A stretch of 64,000 nucleotides of DNA. Source: a candidate division FCPU426 bacterium (lineage in GTDB: Bacteria; Oederibacteriota; Muellerivitia; Muellerivitales; Muellerivitaceae). The position numbers and the translations under genes were made by a program. Positions 10,939-56,226 of the stretch are shown in pieces (the stretch's first letter is position 1; each line of letters opens with the position of its first letter). Location of the stretch: assembly GCA_963738405.1 (NCBI GenBank), contig CAVTWJ010000009.1, forward strand, positions 288,001 to 352,000. The letters run 5' to 3'. The notes under the pieces are model-generated. The model was not told where the DNA came from. It searched no databases and saw only the letters and a list, made by a program, of their open reading frames with translations.

Positions 10939-11066
10939 TAAAAACCCCTTGCGGGGGTTCAGTTTAAAATCCGTCGCAATTTGTAAATAATTTTGGACAA
11001 AGCGCTTTCATGGCGGGTCGATTTCGTGGGATGAGGCGCATTTCCTTGGGTTTTTAACCGCTTTTA

Positions 11067-11082
11067 TGGCATGCTTTCTGCA
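11067..11082 (+). promoter_or_regulatory. Putative sigma54 -24/-12 promoter for the GH gene pair
   Basis: TGGCAT-GCTTT-CTGCA with GG-N10-GC spacing, about 70 nt upstream of ATG 11149. Confidence 0.6.
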
Positions 11083-11148
11083 CGTTTAACCTATCAGACC
11101 TAAAGAGCCGAAACCCATTCGGCTCTTTTCATTTTCGAGGGAACCTTA

Positions 11149-14130
11149 ATGGTGTTGAAACTCAAGCGAACCATCCTGTTTCTGGCCGTCTCCTTCGCCC
11201 TGGTTTTGGGCGGGGCGGGGCATTCCATCGCCCAAACCCTTCCGGCTACCATCACGGTGAATGCGGCCTCGACCATCACCTCTTTCGCGCCCTTGAGCAT
11301 GTTCGGCAACAATACCGCCTATTGGGTCAGCCAGACCAATAATTACGCGGTCAGCACCCTGGTGAACCAGTCGGGCGACGATTTTTTGCGTTATCCCGGC
11401 GGGTCCTCCTCTGACACCTACCATTGGAACAACACCGGGTCATTTGACGCCAACAACCATTGGGTCCCCAGCGGCACCACCTATACCTCGGGCTTTGACG
11501 CCAACCAACTCTATGTGGGAACTACCGGTTCCAACGGCAGCGCCGAGTTTCCCTATTCCTACATCACCGATGGAAACACCCTCACGCGCTGGCTTTCCAA
11601 CTCGGATACCAATTTTCCAACCCATCAATGGGCTCAGATTGACTTGACCGGAACCAACAGCACGGTCAATGTCAGCGCGGTCAGCATCATCTGGGGAAAT
11701 CCCTACGCCACTTCCTTTGAGGTTCAATACTGGAACGCGTCCAACACCGTCATCCCCTATCAGGTCAACAGCGAGTCAAGCTGGGTGGATTTCGCGGGGG
11801 GAAACATTACCGGAGCCGCGGGGGGAACCACCTCCATCACCTTCACGACGGCCCACGCCGCCCGCTACATCCGCATCCTGATGACCGCCAGTTCAGCGGG
11901 GGCAGGGGGAGCCTATTCGATCGCCGAGGCCTACGCCCTCAACGGGGCCAGCTTGATTGGAAGCAATACGAATTCGACCTCCCAAAACAAGGTGGTCGTA
12001 TCCAGCGTGGACCCTGCCTCCTCCAAGCGTTACCAAGCCTCTCCCCCAGGCTCGACCGATTTCACTTCTTTCATGAACTACGCGCATTCCTTTTCGCCCG
12101 TGGCCGTGCCCCTCATTACCGTCAACTTCGGGACGGGAACGCCCTCGGAAGCGGCCAGCTGGGTCTATTACGCCAACATGACAGCCCATCCCAATTACCC
12201 CTCCGGTTACGGCATTAAGTATTGGCAAATCGGTAATGAAATGGACGGCATCTGGGAATGCGGGGGACCAATCCGCGCGGACGATTACGCCTACCGTTTC
12301 ACCGAGTATTACAACGCCATGACCGCTGTGGACCCTTCCATTATTATCACGGGCCCTATTTCCGGAGGCCCAGGGGATTCCTCCAATGCCTATGACGGCA
12401 AAACCTTTATCCAAACTTTCCTTTTGGCCCTCAACACCCTCGGGGCGACCGCCGATCTGGGCGCTTTGGATTACCATTGGTACCCCTACTGGCAGGCTTC
12501 TAGCGCGGTGACCGAGCTCTCGATGCCTTCCCAGGTTTCCGCCTTCGCGGTCACCCTCGCCAACTGGGAGACGGCGGCAAGCGTCAGCACAACCCTCCCG
12601 GTCATCATGAGCGAATACAACATCAGCGCGGGTACGCCCCTGATGATGAATCAGCTTTCCACCGGCCTTTGGCTGGTGAATTGGCTGGGCGAGTTCATTC
12701 ATTACTTCGGGCCGGGCGGCCATACCAACCTTTGGGACACCATGAACGGCTCCACCGACACCACCAATAACACCACCGGCGACCAGGGCTATTTGCAGGT
12801 GGAATCGGGAACCTACCAGTACCAACAGCGGGCGAACTATTGGGCCATGCAAATGATGGCCACCGAGTGGGCCATCAACGGCGACTCCAATACCCACGAA
12901 CTGGTCTCGGCAGCCAGCTCCGCGGCGACCCTGGCCTGCTACGCCGATTACCGGCCGGACGGGATCGTGTCCCTAATCGTGGTGAACAAGGATGTCACTA
13001 ACAGCTATGCCACCAACCTCAATGTGGGCCCTTTTGTCCCCAATGCCACCGCCAATAGCTGGACCTTTGACAGCTCCCATTACGCCTGGGAAACCACCAC
13101 CTCCCCCTATCACGCCAGCCCGGACACGGCGCCCACGGCCGGGACGATCACCAATGCCGCTTCCTCTTTCCCCATCACCTTCGGGCCCTATTCCATCAAT
13201 GTCATCCAATTCACCAATTCGGGACTGCCTACTAATACCCAGACCCCCACCAAGACTGCCACTTCTAGCTTCACCGCGACCCCGACCAAAACCCCAACCA
13301 ATACCCCCACTCCCAGTAACACCCCCACTTTCTCGCCGACCCCCACGCCGAGCAACACTCCCACTGTCACTAACTCGCCCACCCCTTCCCCCACCCCCAC
13401 ATGGACTGGAACCCCGACTTCCTCCTTTACACCCACCAACACCGGCATGCCGACGGATACCTCCACCTCCTCCCCGACGGGGACGCCTACCGGGACCCCG
13501 ACTTCCTCCAGCACGCCTACCCCGACCCTCACCGACACTCCGACGGTCACCTCGACTCCTACCAATACCTCTTGCATGGACGGCTTTGGTAATACCTGCA
13601 CCTATACCGCAACATCCACAGCAACCTCCACCTCCACGGCTACCGGCACCCCTACCCCCACTTGGACCCTCACGTCTACCGGCACCCCAACCTGGACGGG
13701 GACGTCCACCTCCACCCCCACTTCCACGGCCACTTCGATTAATACATCCACTGGAACGCCGACTTCCACTGGTACGCCTACCCTTTCCCCGACGCCTACC
13801 CGAACCACCACCCCGACCTCGACGGTGAATGCCACCTCCACCCCGGTTCTCACCGGGATATTCCCCAACCCGGTTTTGGATGGATCACCCATCCGCGTCG
13901 CGTACAACACCGACCTGTCGGCCAGCCAGGTAGAACTAAAAATCTATTCGCTCGCCTTCCGGAAAATTTATGAGGATGACAAACTATCCACCGCTCCCGG
14001 GAGCCAGATCTACACACTCGATATGAACAAGTTAGGCCATATTTCCAACGGGCTTTATTACGTGGTGGTTTACGTTAATTACAGCGGGGCGGTGAACCGG
14101 CAGGTGATGAAGATGCTAATCCTGCGGTAA
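11149..14130 (+). CDS. Secreted clan GH-A glycoside hydrolase (GH44/51/79-like) with inserted discoidin (F5/8 type C/CBM32-like) domain, long Pro/Thr linker and C-terminal sorting-like domain
   Basis: Signal peptide, LRYPGGSSSDTYHW, ITVNFG, YWQIGNE (acid/base), DYHWYP, MSEYN (nucleophile), ~200-aa TP linker, FPNP...NGLYY...MKMLILR. Confidence 0.78.
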   Translation: MVLKLKRTILFLAVSFALVLGGAGHSIAQTLPATITVNAASTITSFAPLSMFGNNTAYWVSQTNNYAVSTLVNQSGDDFLRYPGGSSSDTYHWNNTGSFDANNHWVPSGTTYTSGFDANQLYVGTTGSNGSAEFPYSYITDGNTLTRWLSNSDTNFPTHQWAQIDLTGTNSTVNVSAVSIIWGNPYATSFEVQYWNASNTVIPYQVNSESSWVDFAGGNITGAAGGTTSITFTTAHAARYIRILMTASSAGAGGAYSIAEAYALNGASLIGSNTNSTSQNKVVVSSVDPASSKRYQASPPGSTDFTSFMNYAHSFSPVAVPLITVNFGTGTPSEAASWVYYANMTAHPNYPSGYGIKYWQIGNEMDGIWECGGPIRADDYAYRFTEYYNAMTAVDPSIIITGPISGGPGDSSNAYDGKTFIQTFLLALNTLGATADLGALDYHWYPYWQASSAVTELSMPSQVSAFAVTLANWETAASVSTTLPVIMSEYNISAGTPLMMNQLSTGLWLVNWLGEFIHYFGPGGHTNLWDTMNGSTDTTNNTTGDQGYLQVESGTYQYQQRANYWAMQMMATEWAINGDSNTHELVSAASSAATLACYADYRPDGIVSLIVVNKDVTNSYATNLNVGPFVPNATANSWTFDSSHYAWETTTSPYHASPDTAPTAGTITNAASSFPITFGPYSINVIQFTNSGLPTNTQTPTKTATSSFTATPTKTPTNTPTPSNTPTFSPTPTPSNTPTVTNSPTPSPTPTWTGTPTSSFTPTNTGMPTDTSTSSPTGTPTGTPTSSSTPTPTLTDTPTVTSTPTNTSCMDGFGNTCTYTATSTATSTSTATGTPTPTWTLTSTGTPTWTGTSTSTPTSTATSINTSTGTPTSTGTPTLSPTPTRTTTPTSTVNATSTPVLTGIFPNPVLDGSPIRVAYNTDLSASQVELKIYSLAFRKIYEDDKLSTAPGSQIYTLDMNKLGHISNGLYYVVVYVNYSGAVNRQVMKMLILR

Positions 14131-23785: not shown

Positions 23786-23843
23786 TCGATTGAACAGGCC
23801 CCAACCCCACGATATCTCCCCTGAATTTAACGCTGGAGGCAGG

Positions 23844-26800
23844 ATGACCCCCGTCAGCAGTTCCTTGTCCAGCGAAACCCAAACTTCCACCTCGCCCTTT
23901 TATGACCTTCTGCAGCAAATCCCCCTTCAATGTTTCGAGAAGGACAGGCTATTAGAATCCGAGCTGATCGGAGTCCAGGTTTACCCGGAAAAGGCCCTAC
24001 TGATCCTGCGCATCAAAATGCCCGCAGCCATACCCGGTGCCACCTACGCGATGCTGAGCCAATACCTCAAAGAAGGCATGCCGGGGGTTCAAAGGGTGGT
24101 TTTGGACGTTCATTACGCCTCTACCGAAGTATCCCTAGTGGATTACCTGGGCGCCCATGAGAAAGACCTGATGTTCTGCCTGACCGAGGAAGCGGACGTG
24201 GCGGAGGGGTGGTTTACCCATTACCGAATGGAACCCCAAGATAACCGCCTCTCCTTTCAGGTTCCCCATGAGCTGGCGCGCCAACAGCTAGACCGCAAGC
24301 AATGCATGAAAGTTCTTTCCGATCTCTTGCAACAGCGCTGCGGTTTTAAAGGCGCGGTGGAGCTTTCCATCAACCCCGATATCCTTCCCCAAGCCGTGGC
24401 CCCGGCCGAGGAAGCACCTTCCGAATACAAGGTTCCCGAACCTCAGAGTGTTTTGATCTTGGGCCGCAAAATTTCCGAGGCTGCCCAATCCATGACGGTG
24501 AGTGACGAACAAAAGGGCTATGTGGTGCAGGGAGAGATCATATCCTTCGACCAGCGGCAGACCCGCACGGGCCGCCACATGATCAAGATGACGGTCACCG
24601 ATTATTCCGACTCCATGGACGTGATCCTGTTCCACGAGAACGACGGCAAGTTCAAGGGCGGCATTAAAGAAAGGGACTGGGTAAAGGTGCGGGGCGACTT
24701 GCGTTTCGACAGCCGGGACCCGAACGAGATGTTGTTAAATGTCCGCGACATCGTGAAGATTCCGGCGCCTGAAACCCGCATGGACCGAGCCGCTGAGAAG
24801 CGCGTGGAGCTTCACTGCCATACCCAAATGAGCCGTATGGACGGACTTTCCAAGATCGACCGCCTCATTGAGACCGCCGCCAAGTGGGGTCACAAGGCCA
24901 TCGCCATCACTGACCACGGCGTGGTGCAGGCCTACCCGGAAGCCAGCGCGGTGGCGAAGAAGAACAAGATCAAATTGATTTTGGGCATGGAAGGCTACCT
25001 GGTCGATGAGTTCAAACGCGAAAAGGGCATGCCCATCTACCACATCATTCTTCTGGTGAAGAACCGGGTGGGACTGAAAAACCTATATAAATTGGTGTCT
25101 GAAAGCCACTTAAGAAACTTCTATAAAAGGCCCCTGATTCCCCGGGAACTTTTGAAACAGCATCGGGAAGGGCTGGTGTTGGGATCGGCCTGTGAACAAG
25201 GCGAGGTTTGGCAGACCCTGCTTCACGGGGGAAGGCCCCTGGAAGAAGTGGCCGACTTTTACGACTATGTCGAGATTCAGCCCTGCGCTAATAACGAGTT
25301 CATGATCCAAGACGGCATCGTAAAAAGCCTAGAAGAGCTTCAGGCCCATACACGAACCCTTTTTGATGTGGGGAAAAAGCTGGGCAAACCGGTGGTGGCC
25401 ACGGGCGATTCGCATTTCATTGAGCCTCGGGATGACGTGTACCGCAAGATCATTCATGCCGGCATGGGCTACGGTCTGGAACGCCAAGCGCCGCTTTATT
25501 TCAAGACCACCGACGAATTGAAAAAAGATTTTGAATATTTTGGCGAGGAAACCGCCCACGAGCTGGTAGTGACCAACCCAGGCAAGATCGCCGACATGAT
25601 TGAAGAAGTAGAGCCCCTGCCCACCCAGACTCTATCCCCCATGTGGGAGGGCGCGGACGAGTTGTTGCGGGAAACTTCCACAAAAGAAGCTCATCGCTTA
25701 TATGGGGAAACCCTCCCGGCCTTTATTGAACAGCGCCTCAAAAAAGAACTCGACGCCATCATCAACAACAAATTCTCCACCCTCTATGTGATCGCCATGA
25801 AGCTGGTGAAAAAATCCCTCTCTGACGGCTATATCGTGGGAAGCCGGGGAAGCGTGGGATCCTCCTTCGTGGCTTTCTTGAGCGGCATCACCGAGGTGAA
25901 TCCGCTTCCGCCCCACTACCGCTGCGAGGCCTGCCAGGTGAACGAGTTTCCCGCCAACCCCGTCTCCATGGCGGGCGTGGACATGGTGGTCAAGGACTGC
26001 CCCCAATGCGCCAAGCCCATGGTTCGGGACGGTTTTTCCATCGCCTTCGAGGTCTTCATGGGTTTCAAGGGCGACAAGATGCCCGATATTGACCTGAACT
26101 TTTCCGGCGAGTACCAGCATGTGGCGCACAAGTATGTGGAAGAACTGTTCGGCAAGGAACACTGCTTCCGTGCGGGCACCATCTCGGCGGTGCAGGATAA
26201 GATCGCCTTCGGCTTCGTGAAAAAATTCGTGGAGCAGGCGGGCCGTACCACAAGAAACGCAGAACTGAACCGGCTGGTAAAGGGTTGTTCGGGCGTTTCA
26301 AAAACCACGGGTCAGCATCCCGGTGGGATCATCATCCTTCCCAAAGATATGGAAATCACCGACGTCTGCCCTGTGCAATACCCAGCGGATAATAAAGATG
26401 GCGATATCATCACCACGCATTTTGATTTCAGCTCCATGCACGACTGCTTGGTGAAGCTCGACATTCTCGGTCATGACAATCCCACCAGCCTGAAGCGCCT
26501 AGAAAATATGACAGGTATTTCGGCCCTGGGGATTCCCTTAAACGATGAAAAGACCATGAGTCTTTTCTCCGGCGTAAAGGCCCTTGGATTGAAAGAGAAA
26601 ATCGAGAAAGACTTAGGAACTCTTGGTGTTCCCGAATTCGGCACCAACTTTGCCATGGACATGTTGCGGGACACCCGCCCCACCCGCTTTGAGCATCTGG
26701 TGAGGCTTTCGGGACTTGCCCACGGAACGGATGTCTGGCTGGGCAACGCCCAAGACCTCATCAAAAAGGGAACGGCCACGCTTTCGACGGTCATTTCCAC

Positions 26801-27509
26801 CCGCGACGACATGTTGAACGACCTCATGGCCCGTGGCATGGACTCCGCCCTAGCCTTCAAGGTGATGGAAGACGTACGCAAGGGCAAGGGGTTGAAGCCT
26901 GAGTACGAGCAGACCATGATGTCGGTCAAGACGCCCGGCTGGTACATCGACAGCTGTAAGAAGATTAAATACATCTTCCCCAAGGCCCATGCGGTGGCCT
27001 ACTGCATCATGAGTTTCCGCATCGCTTGGTTTAAGGCCCACCAACCCCTGGCCTTTTACGCCGATTATTTCACCAACAAGGCATTTGGCTTTGACGCTAC
27101 CGTGGCCTGCGACGGCCTGGGACGGGTGCGTGACCGCATCAAGCTGATCCGTTCTATCGAGAAACCCTCCAACAAGGAACTGGACGAGGCATCGGTTTTG
27201 GAAGTGGTGGAAGAAACCTATGCACGGGGCTTCCGGTTCCTGCCCGTGGACCTTTATAAGTCCGACGCGCGCCAGTTCTTAATTCATGAAAGCCAAGGTG
27301 AAAAGATGCTCCGCCCCCCCTTGATCGGGCTTCCGGGGTTGGGAGATACGGCGGCCGATTGGATCGTGTTAGAAAGGGAGAAGGGTCCCTTTACCTCCAT
27401 TGAGGAAATTCAAGAACGCTGCGGGGTCAATAAAAACGTGTTGGAAATCCTGAAAGGCCATGGATGCCTGAAGGATATGCCTGATTCTAAACAGGTTTCT
27501 CTTTTTTAG
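23844..27509 (+). CDS. polC: DNA polymerase III, PolC type, lacking the DEDDh exonuclease insert
   Basis: N-terminal domain, OB fold before the PHP domain (RVELHCHTQMS, AITDHG, ATGDSHF), VGSRGSVGSS, Zn finger CxxC...CxxC, MPDIDLNFSGEYQ, KLDILGHD, FPKAHAVAY; located between proS and rimP. Confidence 0.95.
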   Translation: MTPVSSSLSSETQTSTSPFYDLLQQIPLQCFEKDRLLESELIGVQVYPEKALLILRIKMPAAIPGATYAMLSQYLKEGMPGVQRVVLDVHYASTEVSLVDYLGAHEKDLMFCLTEEADVAEGWFTHYRMEPQDNRLSFQVPHELARQQLDRKQCMKVLSDLLQQRCGFKGAVELSINPDILPQAVAPAEEAPSEYKVPEPQSVLILGRKISEAAQSMTVSDEQKGYVVQGEIISFDQRQTRTGRHMIKMTVTDYSDSMDVILFHENDGKFKGGIKERDWVKVRGDLRFDSRDPNEMLLNVRDIVKIPAPETRMDRAAEKRVELHCHTQMSRMDGLSKIDRLIETAAKWGHKAIAITDHGVVQAYPEASAVAKKNKIKLILGMEGYLVDEFKREKGMPIYHIILLVKNRVGLKNLYKLVSESHLRNFYKRPLIPRELLKQHREGLVLGSACEQGEVWQTLLHGGRPLEEVADFYDYVEIQPCANNEFMIQDGIVKSLEELQAHTRTLFDVGKKLGKPVVATGDSHFIEPRDDVYRKIIHAGMGYGLERQAPLYFKTTDELKKDFEYFGEETAHELVVTNPGKIADMIEEVEPLPTQTLSPMWEGADELLRETSTKEAHRLYGETLPAFIEQRLKKELDAIINNKFSTLYVIAMKLVKKSLSDGYIVGSRGSVGSSFVAFLSGITEVNPLPPHYRCEACQVNEFPANPVSMAGVDMVVKDCPQCAKPMVRDGFSIAFEVFMGFKGDKMPDIDLNFSGEYQHVAHKYVEELFGKEHCFRAGTISAVQDKIAFGFVKKFVEQAGRTTRNAELNRLVKGCSGVSKTTGQHPGGIIILPKDMEITDVCPVQYPADNKDGDIITTHFDFSSMHDCLVKLDILGHDNPTSLKRLENMTGISALGIPLNDEKTMSLFSGVKALGLKEKIEKDLGTLGVPEFGTNFAMDMLRDTRPTRFEHLVRLSGLAHGTDVWLGNAQDLIKKGTATLSTVISTRDDMLNDLMARGMDSALAFKVMEDVRKGKGLKPEYEQTMMSVKTPGWYIDSCKKIKYIFPKAHAVAYCIMSFRIAWFKAHQPLAFYADYFTNKAFGFDATVACDGLGRVRDRIKLIRSIEKPSNKELDEASVLEVVEETYARGFRFLPVDLYKSDARQFLIHESQGEKMLRPPLIGLPGLGDTAADWIVLEREKGPFTSIEEIQERCGVNKNVLEILKGHGCLKDMPDSKQVSLF

Positions 27510-37941: not shown

Positions 37942-37986
37942 GCCCCAAACCCTTTGTAAAAACGTGGGGCACCCCGGCTGGAAAGG

Positions 37987-38003
37987 TGTAAAATTATTTT
38001 ACG
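37987..38003. promoter_or_regulatory. Palindromic site TGTAAA-N5-TTTACG upstream of the activator operon
   Basis: Matches the TGTAAA-N5-TTTACA palindrome at 40339-40355. Confidence 0.55.
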
Positions 38004-38044
38004 CTTTGCGTTAAATAGGTTTGGGGGAATCTTTGAAGAAAACA

Positions 38045-38422
38045 ATGCTCAAGAATGTGGATTGGGGCGGATTAACCATCGTCAATCTTCTAGGAGTCTT
38101 GGCTTTCCCGCCCTATTTTATCTACCTCATGTCGATGGCGGCCCTGACCGCTTACGGCTTTCTCTATACGACCCATCTTTCCGAGGCCCAACAACAGCGC
38201 CTGATCGAGTTCGAGAAGGAATTCCGAAAGGGTTACAAGCGGGAGAAAGACGGCGACATCCGGGGCGCCATCGCTTGGTATCACCAATTGGAAAAAGACT
38301 TCGCGGACATGCCCCAAGCTTCCAAACTCGCCACCCTGCAGATTCAGAAACTGGAGAAAGAAGGAAAGGCCTCCTCCGCAGGTAAGTCCAAGAAGCGCAA
38401 GCCTATGGGAGGAAAGTCATGA
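38045..38422 (+). CDS. Small membrane protein with a C-terminal TPR-like helical region
   Basis: Hydrophobic N-terminal stretch, then [27 protein letters not shown] overlap with the next gene; start uncertain. Confidence 0.6.
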
Positions 38423-40314
38423 ACTCCCCCTGCCGCGAATGCGGCCAACCCCAGGAAGCGCTCCACCGGTTTTGCCCGGTTTGCGGGATTCCCCAGGCCC
38501 CCCCGGGCAAAATAACCCTGGAAGGCATGGAAGCCTTTGAGCAGGGGGAATATGAAAAGGCCTTGAAGCTTTTTAAAACCGTCGCCAAACGTAATCCTCA
38601 GGATCCCTTCGCCCTGCGCGACGTGGGCCACGCGGCTTTTCACCTTCAAGACCTGACCCAAGCCCTGGAGATGTATCGGAAAGCCATTCAAATCCAGCCC
38701 AATCTGCTGGATGCCCAGTTCAATCTGGGGCTCGTTCATCTTCAAAGGGGCCAAGTCCATGACGCCATGTACGCCTTTTTGGAAACCTTGAACCTCATCC
38801 ATCCGCTCACCCCCGGCTCCTATTATCTCGGCCTTTTTCACAGCGCCCCGACCCTCACCCTCCAATGCCGTTTGAATCTCGGCGGGCTTTTTAAAGAAAG
38901 GGGCGAGTTGGAAAAGGCCCTGGAGCAGTACCGGCTGGCGGCCGAGGCCTGGCCCCGCAATATATTGGCACAGGGAAACCTGGGGGACTGCCTGATGGCT
39001 TTGGAAAGATTCGATGAGGCTATGACGGTCTACAAACGCGCTCTCAAGCTTGCGCCCGAGGGGCCCGACCGGTTGAATCTAAAGAACGATTTAGGGGTGT
39101 CCTATTTCAGGCGCGGGGAGATGGAAAAGGCGGTGGAAGAATTCAAGGCGGTGCTTCAACAGGACCCCGGAAACGTCAATGCGGCTTACAATTTGGGCCA
39201 GCTCTACCGGCAGGAAGGGCAGTCGGAACGGATGCGGAAGGATTTTGAGGAATTCGTCCGGGGCTCGAATGACGGAGCCTCGATCCTTTTCGCCCTAACC
39301 AAATCAATGGTGTCCACCGCCGCCACCTCCTCGAAAAACCTAATCCAGGAGGATCAGGGGCTGGTGGGGGCCAGTCCGGCCTTGAAGAAGGTCCAAGATT
39401 TGATCAAGCGGGCGGCCTCGGCGGACGCGACCGTTCTTATTTTGGGGGAGAACGGAACGGGCAAGGAGGTGGCCGCAAGAGCCATTCACCAGCAATCCTC
39501 CCGTCACGACAAGGCTTTTGTCCCTATCGCCTGCTCGGTGCTGAGCGAGTCATTGCTGGAGAGCGAGCTTTTCGGCCACGAAAAGGGATCCTTTACCGGG
39601 GCCTTGGACCGGAAGATTGGGAAATTTGAGGCCGCCCAGGGCGGGACGGTGTTTTTGGACGAGATCGGGGAACTGAATCTTTCCACCCAGGTGAAGCTGT
39701 TAAGGGTCCTGCAGGAAAGGGAGTTCGAGCGGGTGGGGGGGACCGAACCGGTCCGGGTCGACATCCGGGTCATCGCGGCCACGAACCGCGACTTGAAGCA
39801 GGCCATCCAGAGCGGCCGGTTTCGGGAGGATCTTTTTTACCGCCTCAATGTGATCGCGGTGGAGATGCCTCCCTTGCGTGAGCGGGAAGGCGACCTTTCC
39901 CTTCTGGTGCGCCACTTTCTCGAGAAGCAGAGTCAAAAGAGGCACCACCGTTTTGAGGGGCTTTCCCAGCCCGCCATGGAAATTTTGAAGCGGTACCGAT
40001 GGCCCGGAAACGTTCGGGAATTGGAAAACTTGATTGAGAGGGTCGTCACCCTTAATGACGATGTGATGATCCGCCCGGAGCATCTTCCCCCCGAAATCAT
40101 GGGAGGGTTGGCCTCTTCCGCGAATTCAGGGGCGGGGTTTCCGGGAACAGGGGTATTGGCGAACATGGAAAGGGACATCATCGAAAAGGTTCTCAAGGAA
40201 ACCAGGTTTAATAAACGCAGGGCCGCGGACCGTTTAGGCATCAGCCGGCCTACCCTCTATCAAAAACTGAAGCGTTATGGCCTCAAGCAAACGGCCGATA
40301 AACGGAAAGTGTAA
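38419..40314 (+). CDS. sigma54-dependent enhancer-binding protein with N-terminal Zn-ribbon and TPR repeats and C-terminal Fis-type HTH
   Basis: CRECG..CPVCG, TPR helices, [66 protein letters not shown]. Confidence 0.92.
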
Positions 40315-40355
40315 AAAAAAGTTACTTTAAAAATATAGTGTAAAATATATTTACA
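40310..40355. promoter_or_regulatory. Tandem upstream activator sites
   Basis: TGTAAA-AAAAA-GTTACT (40310-40326) and perfect TGTAAA-ATATA-TTTACA (40339-40355), about 100-140 bp upstream of the sigma54 +1. Confidence 0.65.
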
Positions 40356-40425
40356 TATTTTGAATTGGGTTATCGGTCGGGTCATCCGAAACCCTTATAT
40401 TTTAATGGTTTTTATGACAGCCTTT

Positions 40426-40442
40426 TTGGCATCGCGATTGCA
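40426..40442 (+). promoter_or_regulatory. sigma54 -24/-12 promoter
   Basis: TTGGCAT-CGCGA-TTGCA, near-consensus TGGCAC-N5-TTGCW. Confidence 0.85.
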
Positions 40443-40452
40443 TTAAAGTGTA

Positions 40453-40541
40453 GATGACCAGCTGGAAACAGTTAGTCAATCAACGAATCAAAAAAACTCA
40501 CCTCCTAGAAGCCCCGGATTGACCCATCTGGGGCTTTTTTT
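40453..40541 (+). ncRNA. Putative sigma54-dependent small RNA (~89 nt) with an exposed anti-SD motif
   Basis: Predicted +1 at 40453; 5' hairpin with GAAA loop (40455-40478); A-rich linker; TCACCTCCT (40498-40506); terminator (40509-40541); no RBS-led ORF. Confidence 0.65.
40509..40541 (+). terminator. Intrinsic terminator of the putative sRNA
   Basis: AAGCCCCGGAT-TGACCC-ATCTGGGGC-TTTTTTT. Confidence 0.85.
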
Positions 40542-40599
40542 ATTTGGGGATAGGGGTTTTCCCCTTGTTATAGTGCTTTCCCACGATAACCCTTGGAGG

Positions 40600-41739
40600 A
40601 TGCTCCTGAACGCCCCAGTAGTGATTGCCCTTATTTCCTTCGCTCTATCCCTTGGATTGACCCCCCTTTTCCGCAAAATCGCTCTTAAATCCCAATTTTT
40701 AGACAGCCCCTCGGGACAGCTTAAGAAACACACCGCCCCCGTCCCCTATATGGGGGGGCTCGCCATTTATTTTTCCTTCCTTTTGACTCTCTTGGGGGTT
40801 TTGGTCTTGTCCCCTCCCGTGGAAGCCGGTCGTGTCTTAGCCATCTTTATGGGAGCAACCATCATGGCGCTATTGGGGTTTGTGGATGACTTGTTTTCCC
40901 TTTCGCCCATGGTGAAGTTCTTTTTCCAATTTTTAGCCGCGGGGCTTCTGGTGGTTTTTGGCGTCCAACTTGAATTTTTACCGGGCCATCCGCTCCTCGC
41001 CGTCATTCTCACCATTCTTTGGGTGGTGGGCGTCACCAATGCGGTCAACTTGATCGACATCATGGATGGGCTGGCGGGCGGGGTGACGGCCCTCGCTTGC
41101 TTAGGGTTCGTCCTCGTCCCCTTTTTGGGAAGCCAAAGTTATGTTCCCTTAACCGCGGCGGCTTTGGGGGGGAGCGTGCTGGGCTTTTTGCCCTACAACT
41201 TTCAGCCAGCGCGCATCTACATGGGCGATTCGGGCGCGCTTTTTTTGGGATACACCCTCGCGGGGCTTGCCATGGGGCACGGCTACAGCCAAGTGAACGT
41301 TTTGGCCCTGTGCGCTCCTGTCCTCATCTTGGGGATTCCCCTCTACGACACGATTTTGGTGATGGTCCTTCGCGCCTTGAAGGGCCGGTCCATGTTTCAA
41401 GGGTCCAATGACCACCTGGCCTTGCGGCTTCGCAAAATGGGCCTGACGGTGAAACAAACGGTGCTCAGCCTCTGGGCGATTTCAGCCCTACTGATACTCG
41501 CCGCAGGGGGGCTGGTCCGTTTTACGGAAAAAAGGGCTTTCGCGTTTTTATTGGTTTTGTTCGTGATCGGCATGATCTTTACCCTCGTCATCGCCAGCGT
41601 TTCCATGGGCGAATCCGGAACGGCTCCCCCCAAAAAGCGGACTCCCCGGCGGGGCGACCCTTCCGACCCTGCCGTGACACTGTCCCTAGCCGCCCGTTCC
41701 CGCTCGTCCCAAAAAAATCCCCGGGTTCGTAAAAAATGA
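40600..41739 (+). CDS. Undecaprenyl-phosphate GlcNAc-1-phosphate transferase (WecA/TagO, MraY-like family)
   Basis: VPYMGGLAI, LGFVDD, NAVNLIDIMDGLA, YNFQPARIYMGDSG; has its own extended -10 TGtTATAGT at 40566-40574. Confidence 0.88.
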   Translation: MLLNAPVVIALISFALSLGLTPLFRKIALKSQFLDSPSGQLKKHTAPVPYMGGLAIYFSFLLTLLGVLVLSPPVEAGRVLAIFMGATIMALLGFVDDLFSLSPMVKFFFQFLAAGLLVVFGVQLEFLPGHPLLAVILTILWVVGVTNAVNLIDIMDGLAGGVTALACLGFVLVPFLGSQSYVPLTAAALGGSVLGFLPYNFQPARIYMGDSGALFLGYTLAGLAMGHGYSQVNVLALCAPVLILGIPLYDTILVMVLRALKGRSMFQGSNDHLALRLRKMGLTVKQTVLSLWAISALLILAAGGLVRFTEKRAFAFLLVLFVIGMIFTLVIASVSMGESGTAPPKKRTPRRGDPSDPAVTLSLAARSRSSQKNPRVRKK

Positions 41740-43599: not shown

Positions 43600-45297
43600 A
43601 TGAATTCGAAGAAACTCGGTCTCGTATTAAGCCTGTTGTTGGTTTTGACGCCCGCCCTCAGCTTCGGGGATTTGATGTCGGAGGACTCCCTCACCACCCA
43701 GGCCCGGGCCTACTGGCACTATGCCATCGCGCTTTACTCGCTGCGCATGAGCCACCCGGAGCAATCCCTGGTGGAATTCGAGCAGGCGGCCCGATACGAT
43801 CCCCAATCCCCCTCCATCCACAAGCACCTGGCCTACAACTATTACATGGAAGGGCTGGATAACAAAAGCGTGGAGGAGCTTCAAAAATCCCTCGACCTGA
43901 ACCCGGAAGACACCGAAACCCGCCAGCAGATGGCGGAACTTTTGGCGGCGCAGGGGGAATATTCCAAGGCCCAGCACGAGTTGGAAAACCTGATTCAAAA
44001 AAATCCAGGGAACATCAAGGCCCGATACGAATTGGCCGGCATCTTCGCCAGCCAAAGCAAGACCGACAACGCCATGGCGACCTACCAGGCCATCCTGACG
44101 GCGGACCCCAAGCAGGCCGACGCCTACTACAACATGGGGCTTCTTTATACCCGGGCCAACCAGGCCGTCAAAGCCGAGGAGTATTTCCGCAAGGCCATCA
44201 CCACGGACCCCACTCAAGAGGCTCCCTACGCCTCCCTGGGGCTTATTTACGAATGGGAAAAAAAAGAAGACGATGCCATCGCCACTTACCAGGCCCTGGT
44301 GAAGGTAAACCCCCAAAGCGCTCAGGCCTATCAGGCCCTGGGGGAACTTTACGCCGGTCAGAAAAAAGACGATTTGGCCCTCCAAGCCTTTCAAAGCTAT
44401 TCCAAATTAAAGCCCGCAGACGCCTCCGCCCTCGACAGCATCGGCATCTGCCAGTACCGCCTCAAGCAATATGACGACGCCATCGCCTCCTTTCAGGGCT
44501 TCCTCGACAAGGAACCGCGCAACGACCTGGTGCGGTTTCATTTGGCCGCCGCCTTCGAGGAAAAGATGGAATACCCTCAGGCGGAAGAACAGCTTCAAGC
44601 CATCCTGAAAAATGACGATAAATCCACCGACGCCTGGGTGCGGTTGATCCTTCTTTTAGGCAAGGAAAACAAAGAACCCGAGGCCGCCCAAACCCTCAAG
44701 GACGCCTTGAAAGCGGTTGCCAATAGCCCGGACCTGATCCTCATTGAGGCCATGCTGGAGCATCAAAAGGGCGACTTGACCCCGGCGGAGGAGCATTACC
44801 GAAAGGTCATTCAACTGGACCCTCAAAACGTGCAGGCCCACTTTAACCTGGGAGTTCTCCTGGATAAAAAGGGCCGCTTTGACGACGCCATGGATGAAAT
44901 GAGGAAGGTGTTAAAGATCGACCCGGATAACGCCGAGGGGCTTAATTATTTGGGCTATTCCTACGCGGACAAAAACACCCGCCTTGACGAAGCCAAGGAT
45001 CTGCTGGAAAGGGCGGTCAAGATTGAGCCCGACAACCCCTATTATTTGGACAGTTTGGGTTGGGCTTACTACCGGCGGTCCGATTTCCCGGGGGCCAAGG
45101 CCGAGCTGGAAAAGGCCGAGGGCTATTTAAAAGACGGTCAAAAGGACAACGCGGTCGTGTATGACCATTTGGGAGAGGTTTTCATGAAACTGGGGGATAA
45201 GGATTCGGCCATCCTGCAGTGGCAAAAGGCCGCCCAGCTGGACCCGGATGACAAGGATTATCCCGCCAAAATCGCGAAGGCCAAAACGGCCCCGTGA
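43600..45297 (+). CDS. Exported multi-TPR protein
   Basis: Signal peptide, many TPR repeats, LNYLGYSYAD...YLDSLGWAYY...DHLGE; this TPR type commonly precedes ispE. Confidence 0.85.
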   Translation: MNSKKLGLVLSLLLVLTPALSFGDLMSEDSLTTQARAYWHYAIALYSLRMSHPEQSLVEFEQAARYDPQSPSIHKHLAYNYYMEGLDNKSVEELQKSLDLNPEDTETRQQMAELLAAQGEYSKAQHELENLIQKNPGNIKARYELAGIFASQSKTDNAMATYQAILTADPKQADAYYNMGLLYTRANQAVKAEEYFRKAITTDPTQEAPYASLGLIYEWEKKEDDAIATYQALVKVNPQSAQAYQALGELYAGQKKDDLALQAFQSYSKLKPADASALDSIGICQYRLKQYDDAIASFQGFLDKEPRNDLVRFHLAAAFEEKMEYPQAEEQLQAILKNDDKSTDAWVRLILLLGKENKEPEAAQTLKDALKAVANSPDLILIEAMLEHQKGDLTPAEEHYRKVIQLDPQNVQAHFNLGVLLDKKGRFDDAMDEMRKVLKIDPDNAEGLNYLGYSYADKNTRLDEAKDLLERAVKIEPDNPYYLDSLGWAYYRRSDFPGAKAELEKAEGYLKDGQKDNAVVYDHLGEVFMKLGDKDSAILQWQKAAQLDPDDKDYPAKIAKAKTAP

Positions 45298-48880: not shown

Positions 48881-50149
48881 TTGAGCGAGTCCAACGCATA
48901 CGGCGCCATTGAGGCGGTTTGGCGCATCGAGTCCTCCAGGATTATCGCGGCCCTCGCCCGCATGACGCGGGACGTGGGACTGGCGGAGGACCTCGCCCAA
49001 GAGGCTCTGGTGGCCGCGCTGGAGAAATGGCCCCAAACCGGAATCCCAGACAAGCCGGGCGCCTGGCTCATGACCACCGCCAAGAACCGGGCCCTGGACC
49101 TGTTCCGCCGCAAGGCGATGCTAGATCGCAAGCACAACGAACTGGGAAAGGAATTGGATGAACGTATGGAAAGGACCTGGAAGGAATTCGGCGAAGAAAT
49201 GGATGACGACATCGGCGACGACCTTTTGCGCCTGGTCTTCATTTCCTGCCACCCGGTCCTTCCTCCCGAAGGCCGGGTCGCTTTGACCCTGCGCCTGCTG
49301 GGGGGCCTGACGACCCAAGAAATCGCCCGGGCTTTTTTAGTTTCCGAACCCACCGTCGCCCAGCGCATCGTGCGGGCCAAGCGGACCCTGGCCGAGGCCC
49401 AGGTGCCTTTCGAAGTGCCCCGGGGAACAGAACTGGCCGAACGTCTTTCCTCGGTGCTCGCGGTACTTTATCTCATCTTTAACGAAGGCTATTCGGCTAC
49501 CGCCGGGGAGGATTGGCTCAGGCCCGCCCTTTGCGAGGACGCACTGCGGCTGGGCCGCGTTTTGGCGGGCCTGGCCCCCCAAGAACCCGAGGTCCACGGC
49601 TTGGTGGCGCTGATGGAAATACAGGCCTCCCGTTTCGGAGCCCGGGTCGGTTCCGGTGGAGAACCGGTGCTCCTCATGGACCAGAACCGGGCCCGTTGGG
49701 ACCACCTTCTGATCCAGCGAGGACTGGCCGCCCTGGAAAAGGCCGAGTCGTTTTCGAAGGTACGGGGTCCCTACACTCTGCAGGCCGCCATCGCCGCCTG
49801 CCATGCCCGGGCCAAGACGGCCGAAGAGACCGATTGGAAACGCATCGTGGCCCTTTATGACGAATTGGGAAGGATAGCTCCTTCCCCCATCGTGGAACTG
49901 AACCGGGCGGTGGCGCTCTCCATGGCCTTCGGCCCCGCCGTGGGGCTGGAACTAATCGACCAACTGGCCGCCGAACCAACGCTTAAGAATTACCACCTCC
50001 TGCCCAGTGTCCGGGGCGACTTTTTGGCCAAAATGGGCCGCTTCCAAGAGGCGCGGGTTGAAATGGAAAGGGCCGCGGCCCTCACCCAGAACGAGCTGGA
50101 GCGCAAAATGCTCCTGAAGCGCGCGGCCTCCATCGCCGCCGGAAATTAA
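48881..50149 (+). CDS. ECF42-type sigma factor with C-terminal TPR-like extension (module 1)
   Basis: AEDLAQEAL, PGAWLMTTAKNRALD, LRLVFISCHP, LTTQEIARAFLV, LYLIFNEGY, PYTLQAAIAACH, SPIVELNRAVA; follows DGPF genes. Confidence 0.88.
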   Translation: MSESNAYGAIEAVWRIESSRIIAALARMTRDVGLAEDLAQEALVAALEKWPQTGIPDKPGAWLMTTAKNRALDLFRRKAMLDRKHNELGKELDERMERTWKEFGEEMDDDIGDDLLRLVFISCHPVLPPEGRVALTLRLLGGLTTQEIARAFLVSEPTVAQRIVRAKRTLAEAQVPFEVPRGTELAERLSSVLAVLYLIFNEGYSATAGEDWLRPALCEDALRLGRVLAGLAPQEPEVHGLVALMEIQASRFGARVGSGGEPVLLMDQNRARWDHLLIQRGLAALEKAESFSKVRGPYTLQAAIAACHARAKTAEETDWKRIVALYDELGRIAPSPIVELNRAVALSMAFGPAVGLELIDQLAAEPTLKNYHLLPSVRGDFLAKMGRFQEARVEMERAAALTQNELERKMLLKRAASIAAGN

Positions 50150-54951: not shown

Positions 54952-56226
54952 ATGAGCGACATACCTGGTTTAGTGGACCATCTTTTCCGCCGAGAGTCGG
55001 GGAAGATGGTTTCTTATTTAACCCGCGTTTTCGGCTTCAGCCGGCTCAATATGGCTGAGGACGTGGTGCAGGATACCCTCATCAAGGCCCTGGAGGTCTG
55101 GCCCTTCCACGGCGTGCCCGACAACCCCTCGGCCTGGCTCATGCGGGCCGCCCGCAACCGGGCCATCGATATCATCCGCCGAGACAGCCGTTTCAAGCTT
55201 GCCGCGCCCGAACTCGCCCACCTCCTCAGGCTCCGGGAAGAGGAAAGCGGGGAGGTGCCGATTCCCGACCAAGAAATCCAAGACGCCCAGCTTCGAATGA
55301 TGTTCTCCTGCTGCCACCCGGACTTAACCGCCGACTCCCAGATCACCTTGATTCTCAAGACCCTCTGCGGGTTCAGCGTTTCGGAAATCGCGCAAGCCCT
55401 CTTGAGCCGGGAAGATTCGGTTGAGAAACGCCTGGGCCGCGCCCGCAAGACCCTTCGCGATTCCGGCACCTTTGTCGAACTCACCGAAAATTCCGATATT
55501 CCCAGCCGCCTGGAGGCGGTATATCAGGCCCTCTACCTGCTTTTCAACGAGGGCTACCACGCCAGCCGGTCCGACCGCAAGGAACCCGAAGACTTATGTT
55601 ATGAAGCCATCCGGCTGACACTACTTCTCGGCGAGCATCCCCAAGGCCAGAAGCCCAAAACCTTTTCCCTTTTGGCCCTCATGTGCCTGCACGCCGCGCG
55701 CCTGCCGGGCCGCACGGCTGACGATGGAAGCCTGATCCAGCTTGAATTTCAGGATCGCGCTAAATGGGACAGGTTCCTTATGGGCCAGGGGTTTCATTAT
55801 CTTGAAAAGGCAAGGGAAGGGCATTCCGTCAGCGAATACCTGGTGGAAGCCAGCATCGCCGGGCTCCACTGCGAGGCCAAGACCTATCAGGAAACCGAAT
55901 GGGGAAGAATTTTGGAACTTTACGACCTGCTATACCACCTGAAACCCTCACCCGTGGTGGGCTTGAACCGGGCCATCGCGGTGGGTAAAGCCAAGGGGCC
56001 CGAGGAAGGGTTGGCCGAACTGGGCAGAATTACCGACGCCGGGAAGCTGAAGGACTATCCCTTTTACCCGGCGGCTTTTGGGGAATTCCATTTACTGGCG
56101 GGAAGGCATGAAGAAGCGGGGAAGCATTTTGAAAAGGCCATGGGCCTGGCAAGAAATGAGCACGAGCGGGACTTTTTTGAAAAGAAGAGAGGAGTTCCCT
56201 CAAACCGAATTTCTGAAAAGGACTAG
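54952..56226 (+). CDS. ECF42-like sigma factor with C-terminal extension (module 2)
   Basis: HLFRRESGKMVSYL, AEDVVQD, PSAWLMRAARNRAID, LRMMFSCCHP, LYLLFNEGY, SPVVGLNRAIA. Confidence 0.88.
   Translation: MSDIPGLVDHLFRRESGKMVSYLTRVFGFSRLNMAEDVVQDTLIKALEVWPFHGVPDNPSAWLMRAARNRAIDIIRRDSRFKLAAPELAHLLRLREEESGEVPIPDQEIQDAQLRMMFSCCHPDLTADSQITLILKTLCGFSVSEIAQALLSREDSVEKRLGRARKTLRDSGTFVELTENSDIPSRLEAVYQALYLLFNEGYHASRSDRKEPEDLCYEAIRLTLLLGEHPQGQKPKTFSLLALMCLHAARLPGRTADDGSLIQLEFQDRAKWDRFLMGQGFHYLEKAREGHSVSEYLVEASIAGLHCEAKTYQETEWGRILELYDLLYHLKPSPVVGLNRAIAVGKAKGPEEGLAELGRITDAGKLKDYPFYPAAFGEFHLLAGRHEEAGKHFEKAMGLARNEHERDFFEKKRGVPSNRISEKD

Follow-up and report, generated by a model that had tools for sequence, protein, structure and literature searches.

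An activator gene followed by its own sigma54-dependent small RNA (sRNA) gene is a design described so far in Myxococcus and Pseudomonas. In Myxococcus, Pxr is a 108-nt intergenic RNA encoded directly 3′ of the sigma54 response-regulator gene nla19, on the same strand and with its own sigma54 promoter (PMC5568312); in Pseudomonas, an RpoN consensus promoter lies directly behind ntrC, and transcription of NrsZ from it needs both NtrC and RpoN (PMC4253122). Qrr/LuxO of Vibrio (PMC10162802) and GlmY of enterobacteria (PMC2377431) are looser analogues. Another group, alpha-r14/NfeR1 and AbcR, carries an unpaired C/U-rich anti-Shine-Dalgarno (anti-SD) motif that is proposed, and for NfeR1 was shown, to occlude the ribosome-binding site (RBS) in numerous mRNAs, a regulator operon among them (PMC10746234). 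Here, we describe a locus of similar layout in a 64,000-nt stretch of DNA (the window) from a candidate division FCPU426 bacterium, in which genes for a small membrane protein and a sigma54 activator are followed by a predicted RNA of ~89 nt and a wecA-like gene.

On the sequence evidence set out below, we estimate a probability of roughly 0.55 that this locus contains a new sRNA gene, sigma54-dependent and linked to its activator gene in the manner of Pxr/nla19 and NrsZ/ntrC. As with Pxr, the predicted RNA lies directly behind the activator gene on the same strand, has its own sigma54 promoter, belongs to the ~100-nt class, is multi-stemmed and stands 5′ of an unrelated gene. It differs from Pxr in having no sequence or Rfam similarity to it, in forming two stem-loops where Pxr has three, and in the distance from the activator gene to the +1 site, which is 138 nt here and 262 nt for Pxr. 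The activator also departs from the Pxr/nla19 pattern, lacking a receiver domain, carrying a Zn ribbon and tetratricopeptide repeats (TPRs), and being paired with a membrane protein. The RpoN-type promoter directly behind the activator gene recalls NrsZ, although dependence on the activator is a prediction here; NrsZ is longer, is processed into repeats of ~40 and 140 nt, answers to a classical two-component NtrC and shows no homology.

GlmY depends on GlrR and sigma54, and both Qrr and GlmY are represented by families in Rfam. The predicted locus shares with Qrr/LuxO and GlmY/GlrR a sigma54 promoter that is linked to the activator and serves only a short terminated RNA, whereas the sRNA genes of those systems lie on the 5′ side of the activator operon or diverge from it, and their activators are response regulators. 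An unpaired C/U-rich anti-SD motif is shared with alpha-r14/NfeR1, but NfeR1 displays three identical CCUCCUCCC copies in hairpin loops and is not sigma54-dependent, while the RNA described here carries one UCACCUCCU in a linker. A preliminary description of this locus had proposed a candidate undescribed signalling module. Given that the activator-then-sigma54-sRNA order is known from Pxr/nla19 and NrsZ/ntrC, and anti-SD seeds from alpha-r14, that wording is too strong. A literature search, largely at the level of titles and abstracts, returned no description of a TPR or Zn-ribbon activator type, nor of the candidate RNA.

If the RNA is real, the design known from Pxr and NrsZ extends to an uncultured lineage and is tied to an activator without a receiver domain, probably controlled by protein contacts at the membrane. 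The locus would then offer a compact, heterologously testable system for how TPR-type inputs switch AAA+ activators, and a new sRNA family for covariance-model building. Its protein-coding part is best read as a regulatory unit conserved in a clade of uncultured bacteria, in which a predicted membrane hairpin protein and a Zn-ribbon/TPR activator are encoded together.

The predicted sigma54 transcript

The elements of the locus, in window coordinates and with open reading frame abbreviated to ORF, are as follows.

37987-38003, no strand: dyad 3, TGTAAA-N5-TTTACG; 30 nt 5′ of the small ORF, possible site of autoregulation by the activator
38033-38422, + strand: small ORF with a TTG start, predicted 129-aa membrane protein; P0257 of the source record is the same 129-aa form
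38419-40314, + strand: activator ORF, 631 aa; Zn ribbon, TPR array, AAA+ domain with GSFTGA loop, Fis-type helix-turn-helix (HTH)
40310-40326, no strand: dyad 1, TGTAAA-N5-GTTACT; starts inside the activator stop codon, centre at -135, candidate upstream activator site
40339-40355, no strand: dyad 2, TGTAAA-N5-TTTACA, a perfect palindrome; centre at -106, candidate upstream activator site
40426-40442, + strand: sigma54 -24/-12 promoter TTGGCAT-N5-TTGCA, by pattern search
40453-40541, + strand: predicted RNA of ~89 nt with 5′ hairpin, linker and terminator, by fold and promoter prediction
40453-40481, + strand: GAAA-capped 5′ hairpin, by RNA fold
40482-40506, + strand: A-rich linker of 25 nt, unpaired with a probability of at least 0.9 (RNA positions 30-54)
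40498-40506, + strand: TCACCTCCT in the linker (UCACCUCCU as RNA, positions 46-54), by sequence
40507-40538, + strand: intrinsic terminator of 13 pairs, followed by T7 to 40541
40566-40574, + strand: extended -10 of the wecA-like gene, TGTTATAGT, by direct reading, with a trace in relatives
40594-41739, + strand: Shine-Dalgarno (SD) sequence TGGAGG (40594-40599) and wecA-like GT4 polyprenyl-phosphate sugar-phosphate transferase; the family-wide start is CTG 40606

With both strands of the 64 kb counted, the exact pattern TGGCAY-N5-TTGCW occurs a single time, at 40427-40442, with 0.08 matches expected and at least one found in 7 of 100 shuffles. This site, described previously as near-consensus, has the GG and GC elements at the proper spacing and is the sole exact match of the window. 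It lies on the + strand, 113 nt past the activator stop codon and 88-117 nt 3′ of two dyads, and places the +1 at about 40453. Both of these dyads were found on direct reading where the preliminary description had placed them (40310-40326 and 40339-40355); dyad 3, absent from its list, emerged from a window-wide pattern search. With up to two mismatches the dyad pattern matches three times in the window (1.19 expected), and at least three matches were seen in 12 of 100 shuffles. The count is weak by itself; the stronger point is placement, with all three dyads in the two intergenic spaces that flank the operon. A sigma54 promoter with upstream dyads would be very unlikely to arise by chance, and we regard it as highly probable that the promoter is real and driven by the adjoining activator.

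The transcript predicted from this promoter folds with a minimum free energy (MFE) of -31 kcal/mol (z -5.03), and none of 200 shuffled sequences was equally stable. The 5′ hairpin, linker, TCACCTCCT and strong terminator that had been noted earlier all reappear in this fold, and truncating or lengthening the transcript yielded no antiterminator alternative. Within the ~89 nt, no ORF is longer than 22 codons. At gathering thresholds, Rfam returned only a tRNA from the whole window. Between 40200 and 40700, the best sub-threshold matches were a rimP leader (20.5 bits, cut-off 47) and NsiR1 (19.1 bits, cut-off 39), and in both alignments the paired part falls on the terminator hairpin. The earlier suggestion of an unrelated sRNA is thus borne out to the extent that no Rfam family matches and that no homology to Pxr, NrsZ, Qrr or GlmY was found. 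A plasmid-collection search with the intergenic DNA gave only a 37-nt chance match.

How often such a layout lies behind activator genes was gauged with a control set of 74 unrelated activator loci that have at least 300 nt of downstream sequence. A sigma54-like promoter, allowing up to two mismatches on the same strand within 350 nt of the activator gene, was present downstream in 17 of the 74, and a terminator followed within 260 nt in only 1 of these 17. The promoter-and-terminator layout of activator-linked sRNAs, predicted here, is therefore rare in the controls (1/74). Behind activator genes it is unusual to find a strong terminator so close to a promoter, and the arrangement fits an sRNA or an attenuator better than an ordinary mRNA start. 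On balance, the predictions favour a stand-alone short RNA as the main product.

Two other promoter-plus-hairpin arrangements were observed. The sole control with a promoter and then a weak hairpin and T-run, L021 (5114-5330), comes from a Blastocatellia metagenome-assembled genome and looks like a ~180-nt 5′ untranslated region before ATG 5322. Within the window, allowing one mismatch in the promoter pattern (3.42 matches expected) adds a second sigma54-like site at 11067-11082, TGGCATGCTTTCTGCA, with a TGTAAA half-site ~85 nt upstream (window region 10983-11160). It is followed by an 11-bp hairpin and UUUUCAUUUU (z -2.5), directly before an SD and ATG 11149; the ORF behind it encodes 993 aa with no Pfam family. 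The activator may act on this site as well, or the site may hint that leaders made of a promoter and a hairpin exist in this organism.

Downstream of the terminator, the wecA-like gene appears to have signals of its own. Its product in the source record (P0124, 406 aa) starts at TTG 40519, inside the terminator loop. Among the 120 relatives listed, at least 19 begin at the position that matches codon 30 (CTG 40606), which is, by this comparison, the real start of the family. The annotated N-terminus is accordingly 29 codons of translated non-coding DNA that swallow the terminator, an over-extension that calls for correction. The over-extended translations of relatives were used to read their upstream DNA; such strings limit the possible DNA sequences without fixing them. 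The pair WR, corresponding to TGG AGG of the SD, stands just before the start in 15 of 26 wecA-like ORFs that reach upstream, and VI[VIL], the trace of TGTTATAGT, occurs in 9 of ~15 clusters that extend at least 16 codons upstream, with variants that still permit a -10 in three other clusters. A protein search with the translated upstream region and the wecA N-terminus gave three matches, two of which add -10 and SD traces. These recurrent traces indicate that a conserved promoter and SD belong to the wecA-like gene itself, in line with the separate extended -10 reported previously at 40566-40574, and that TGTTATAGT probably separates its transcription from the sigma54 promoter.

The same approach reaches the RNA locus in one distant relative. 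P0202, a wecA-like protein that is 56% identical and comes from a 1,538-bp contig, has an N-terminal extension that spans the entire upstream region, and the best six-frame match of this extension in the window is 40456-40542 (29 codons, no gap, E 0.003). Six of its residues, at the right distance upstream, are compatible with TGGCAY-N5-TTGC, for which the chance is 2.6-3% per 65-aa peptide. Towards its 3′ end, the extension would permit a GC-rich hairpin of 11 bp and a T-run; in the hairpin control, 51 of 3000 random segments reached 11 bp and 135 of 3000 reached 8 bp. The translation is thus compatible with a homologous RNA body of equal length that has a promoter and a terminator, while conservation at the seed position is not supported. 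P0403, from a cluster ~63% identical, shows a trace of the terminator loop and T-run and then a -10 trace, although this short stretch alone is not significant (E 0.9).

The activator and the co-encoded membrane protein

Pfam assigns TPR families to activator residues 34-273, Sigma54_activat (PF00158) to 315-481 (E 8.7e-71), AAA_lid_14 to 487-567 and HTH_8 to 580-620 (E 6.3e-15). Residues 5-22 form a CxxC-N10-CxxC motif, consistent with a Zn ribbon, and the zinc-ribbon family PF13240 appears among the precomputed domains of several relatives. The GAFTGA-type loop reads GSFTGA, with G390, F392, T393, G394 and A395 invariant in 40 orthologues. No REC, GAF or PAS domain is present in the Pfam listing, and the N-terminus is too short to house one, so that the Zn-ribbon and TPR input region proposed in the preliminary description stands. 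No NCBIfam model reached its cut-off, including the NtrC, AtoC, ZraR and PEP-CTERM-box regulator models, and named activator models align only from about residue 295 onwards. In some sources the relatives bear the label of two-component NtrC-type response regulators; this label was rejected for the window protein, as residues 1-310 hold only the Zn ribbon and TPRs and no REC. The domain predictions identify the protein as a bona fide enhancer-binding protein rather than a response regulator.

In a protein search scored on the N-terminal 310 residues, the 67 top clusters are 45-86% identical and 66 of them carry PF00158; below these, only generic TPR proteins were found, at no more than 31% identity. 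A plasmid-collection search with this N-terminal domain also returned only generic TPR proteins. Atlas look-alikes of the activator, scoring 0.86 at best, are other sigma54 activators, and in one cluster 96% of members carry TPR_12. As a lead only, TPR-bearing activators seem to exist in other uncultured phyla, making the architecture uncommon but not unique. At the other end of the protein, 11 of 62 intact activator C-termini (P0001-P0067), the window's included, end in K-V, and most others in G/K-V-E/D/K. The K-V end fits GTG-TAA, which would place the first dyad half-site over the stop codon (40312-40314). No rpoN gene is among the genes of the 64-kb window.

Upstream, the TGA of the small ORF and the ATG of the activator overlap as ATGA on direct reading, which upholds the layout for translational coupling described before. 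At E<=0.001, 150 relatives of the small protein were obtained among 165 candidates. Its alignment A2 comprises 53 sequences with a mean column identity of 58%, and the relatives share an invariant transmembrane hairpin (PPYF turn) and a FEKEFRKGY segment. The structural model (predicted local distance difference test, pLDDT, 74.9) has helices at 11-24, 27-48, 51-72, 76-89 and 94-114, and is predicted to consist of a transmembrane helical hairpin, a three-helix cytoplasmic domain and a Lys-rich disordered tail. Searches of Pfam and NCBIfam gave no known family, and Foldseek of the model against the PDB gave no match at E<=0.001. Atlas look-alikes (top score 0.89) are without a family and serve as a lead only.

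PspF, with PspA and PspBC, FleQ, with FleN, and NifA, with NifL, are partner-controlled activators without a receiver domain. The window activator resembles the PspF, FleQ and NifA group in lacking REC, GAF and PAS domains and in being encoded with a small partner protein, so protein-protein control is the natural expectation. It differs from this group in that a Zn ribbon and ~6-7 TPRs are fused to the AAA+ domain, and in that it is encoded with a membrane hairpin protein of 129 aa that belongs to no known family. From gene order, the membrane protein may control the activator through the TPRs. A predicted complex of activator residues 1-310 with residues 44-129 of the small protein, built with both alignments, had a score of 0.01 and a mark of 0.32 and speaks neither for nor against binding.

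Gene order in relatives was assessed by proxy, taking two genes to share a contig where the longest contigs of their clusters have identical size. On this basis, the activator and a wecA-like cluster share a contig in 26 of 66 cases, with five more through cluster members, and the activator and a small-protein cluster do so in 15 of 66. All three genes coincide in eight cases, including a 5,464-bp contig. One match, at 2,473 bp (P0022/P0176), was discarded as a coincidence, since the sources differ and a contig of this size has no room for both genes. By this sequence-based proxy, the three protein-coding parts are thus conserved families on common contigs in relatives.

Genome contigs were also scanned with a profile from the 40-sequence activator alignment. 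The 80 loci listed are all unrelated activators that match only from residue 232 or later (mostly ~315-622), at 41-58% identity, with the scan driven by the generic AAA+ peptides ESELFGHE and WPGNVREL. A tblastn search of these 80 loci with the N-terminal 312 residues of the activator and with the small protein found no orthologue, and the loci were used solely as the source of the control set described above.

Competing explanations and the proposed action of the RNA

Several observations weigh against an activator-linked sRNA, or against its acting by anti-SD pairing. Conservation of the RNA locus is indirect, being read from amino-acid strings. The terminator is also the sole terminator of the activator operon, and its conservation alone is therefore no proof of an sRNA; the RNA would in consequence be placed like a 3′-end-embedded sRNA with its own promoter. 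The promoter and terminator-like hairpin at 11067-11082 directly front a gene, so that such a pair can serve as a leader in this organism. In one relative, P0146, the T-run appears a few codons from the SD and there seems to be no -10 block between them, which fits read-through better. TCACCTCCT occurs twice in the window against 0.43 expected, barely above chance when taken alone, and at the place of TCA-CCT-CCT the translation of P0202 has S-Q-T, a reading incompatible with CCUCC, so that the anti-SD motif is not kept at this position. Pairing with the wecA start region amounts to only 5 bp (-9.3 kcal/mol), and the -13.2 kcal/mol obtained for the activator start region lies above the background 5th percentile of -13.9.

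The P0146 and 11067-11082 observations bear on the best-surviving alternative, in which the sigma54 transcript is a leader, the terminator is leaky or a regulated attenuator, and the real target is the downstream envelope-glycan operon. Activator genes often adjoin their target operons, the 17 of 74 control loci with a downstream sigma54-like promoter fit this pattern, 31 of 66 activator clusters have a contig in common with the wecA-like gene, and the genes downstream are envelope-related. A leader is nevertheless unlikely in view of the strength of the terminator (13 pairs and U7) with no antiterminator fold, of the -10 TGTTATAGT and SD between terminator and gene, whose traces recur in 9 and 15 relatives respectively, and of the rarity of a closely following terminator behind the control promoters (1/17).

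A second alternative, that the promoter-like site is inactive or incidental and that the hairpin and T-run merely end the operon without any separate RNA, draws on the fact that this is the only + strand terminator from the activator stop to the next gene. The intergenic region is also AT-rich (38% GC, compared with 55% in the window as a whole), a composition in which AT-rich dyads arise by chance more readily, and the dyad count is as weak as stated above. This explanation appears distinctly unlikely, however, when set against an exact -24/-12 match expected 0.08 times per window, on the right strand, behind an activator gene and 88-117 nt past the dyads, and against the P0202 upstream peptide, which is compatible with the same promoter in the same relative place.

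The weakest alternative, that the transcript serves as a very short mRNA encoding a peptide of 22 aa (ORF 40454-40522) whose translation into the terminator loop could couple to read-through, has in its favour an ATG at 40454, one base past the predicted +1, a stop codon at 40520-40522 inside the loop and coverage of the terminator 5′ arm, but is most improbable given the lack of an SD, an AUG paired in the 5′ hairpin in both MFE and centroid structures, a peptide with no hydrophobic or other recognisable feature, and P0202 conservation that is gapless in another reading frame and fits DNA- or RNA-level better than coding conservation.

If the locus does encode an activator-linked sRNA, the activator would bind the 17-bp dyads at -135 and -106, as their symmetry and positions and the Fis-type HTH suggest, and would open the sigma54 promoter at 40426-40442, a step suggested by promoter quality and adjacency to the activator gene. 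The promoter would yield one product, the ~89-nt RNA, with an end at 40541 predicted from the strength of the terminator and its lack of an alternative fold. Through dyad 3 (37987-38003), the activator would be able to regulate the operon that encodes it. The input may be protein contact on the TPR array, possibly with the co-translated membrane protein, as gene order suggests. The RNA would most likely work in trans, base pairing with its targets through the unpaired linker of 25 nt, and the 16S-like UCACCUCCU would cover SD sequences.

For this last step, the sequence gives mixed indications. The UCACCUCCU motif is exposed in the linker (unpaired probability at least 0.9), as in RNAs with a C/U-rich anti-SD motif, but it is present in a single copy, and the ultraconserved, usually multi-copy motif with demonstrated pairing that marks those RNAs was not found here. 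Among the 38 start regions of the window, 19 genes have a 4-mer SD core and 8 have a 5-mer core, so SD occlusion is possible in principle. A duplex scan of the same 38 regions brought out none that stands out, the best being no better than random 45-nt windows. Together with the S-Q-T reading in P0202, this leaves the repression or SD-decoy role put forward in the preliminary description with no positive evidence, and SD occlusion as the mode of action is possible but doubtful. The presence of CCTCC elsewhere in the P0202 linker was dropped as a test, as 90-99% of random peptides allow it. The possibility that AGGAGGTGA on the minus strand is an RBS, which had been named as a refuting case, was examined and rejected, as no minus-strand ORF of at least 20 aa starts downstream.

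The full scheme would have the membrane hairpin protein gate the activator by contact, with an RNA carrying a copy of the 16S 3′ tail as sole output, forming a global, signal-dependent brake on strong-SD mRNAs that includes feedback on its own operon, as a clade-wide undescribed module. Taken as a whole, we consider this scheme very improbable. Were the anti-SD idea true, a dedicated transcription factor would here control a general repressor of translation, which is a rare arrangement, although the evidence does not favour conservation of the seed.

Genes downstream and elsewhere in the window

The gene string behind the RNA comprises the wecA-like transferase, a flavin adenine dinucleotide (FAD) oxidoreductase, a cyclic-nucleotide (cNMP)-binding protein, a PrsT-like TPR protein, a GHMP kinase and a hydrolase. 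The TPR protein (43600-45297, 565 aa) resembles XrtA/PEP-CTERM PrsT at 202 bits (cut-off 312) and adjoins the cNMP-binding protein and the GHMP kinase within this string. Elsewhere, a DnaE-type polymerase ORF (23790-27509, 1239 aa) has an unusual N-terminal arrangement with an OB fold (245-321) before the PHP domain. Two paralogous genes for extracytoplasmic function (ECF) sigma factors with a DUF6596 C-terminal domain lie 5 kb apart, at 48881-50149 and 54952-56226.

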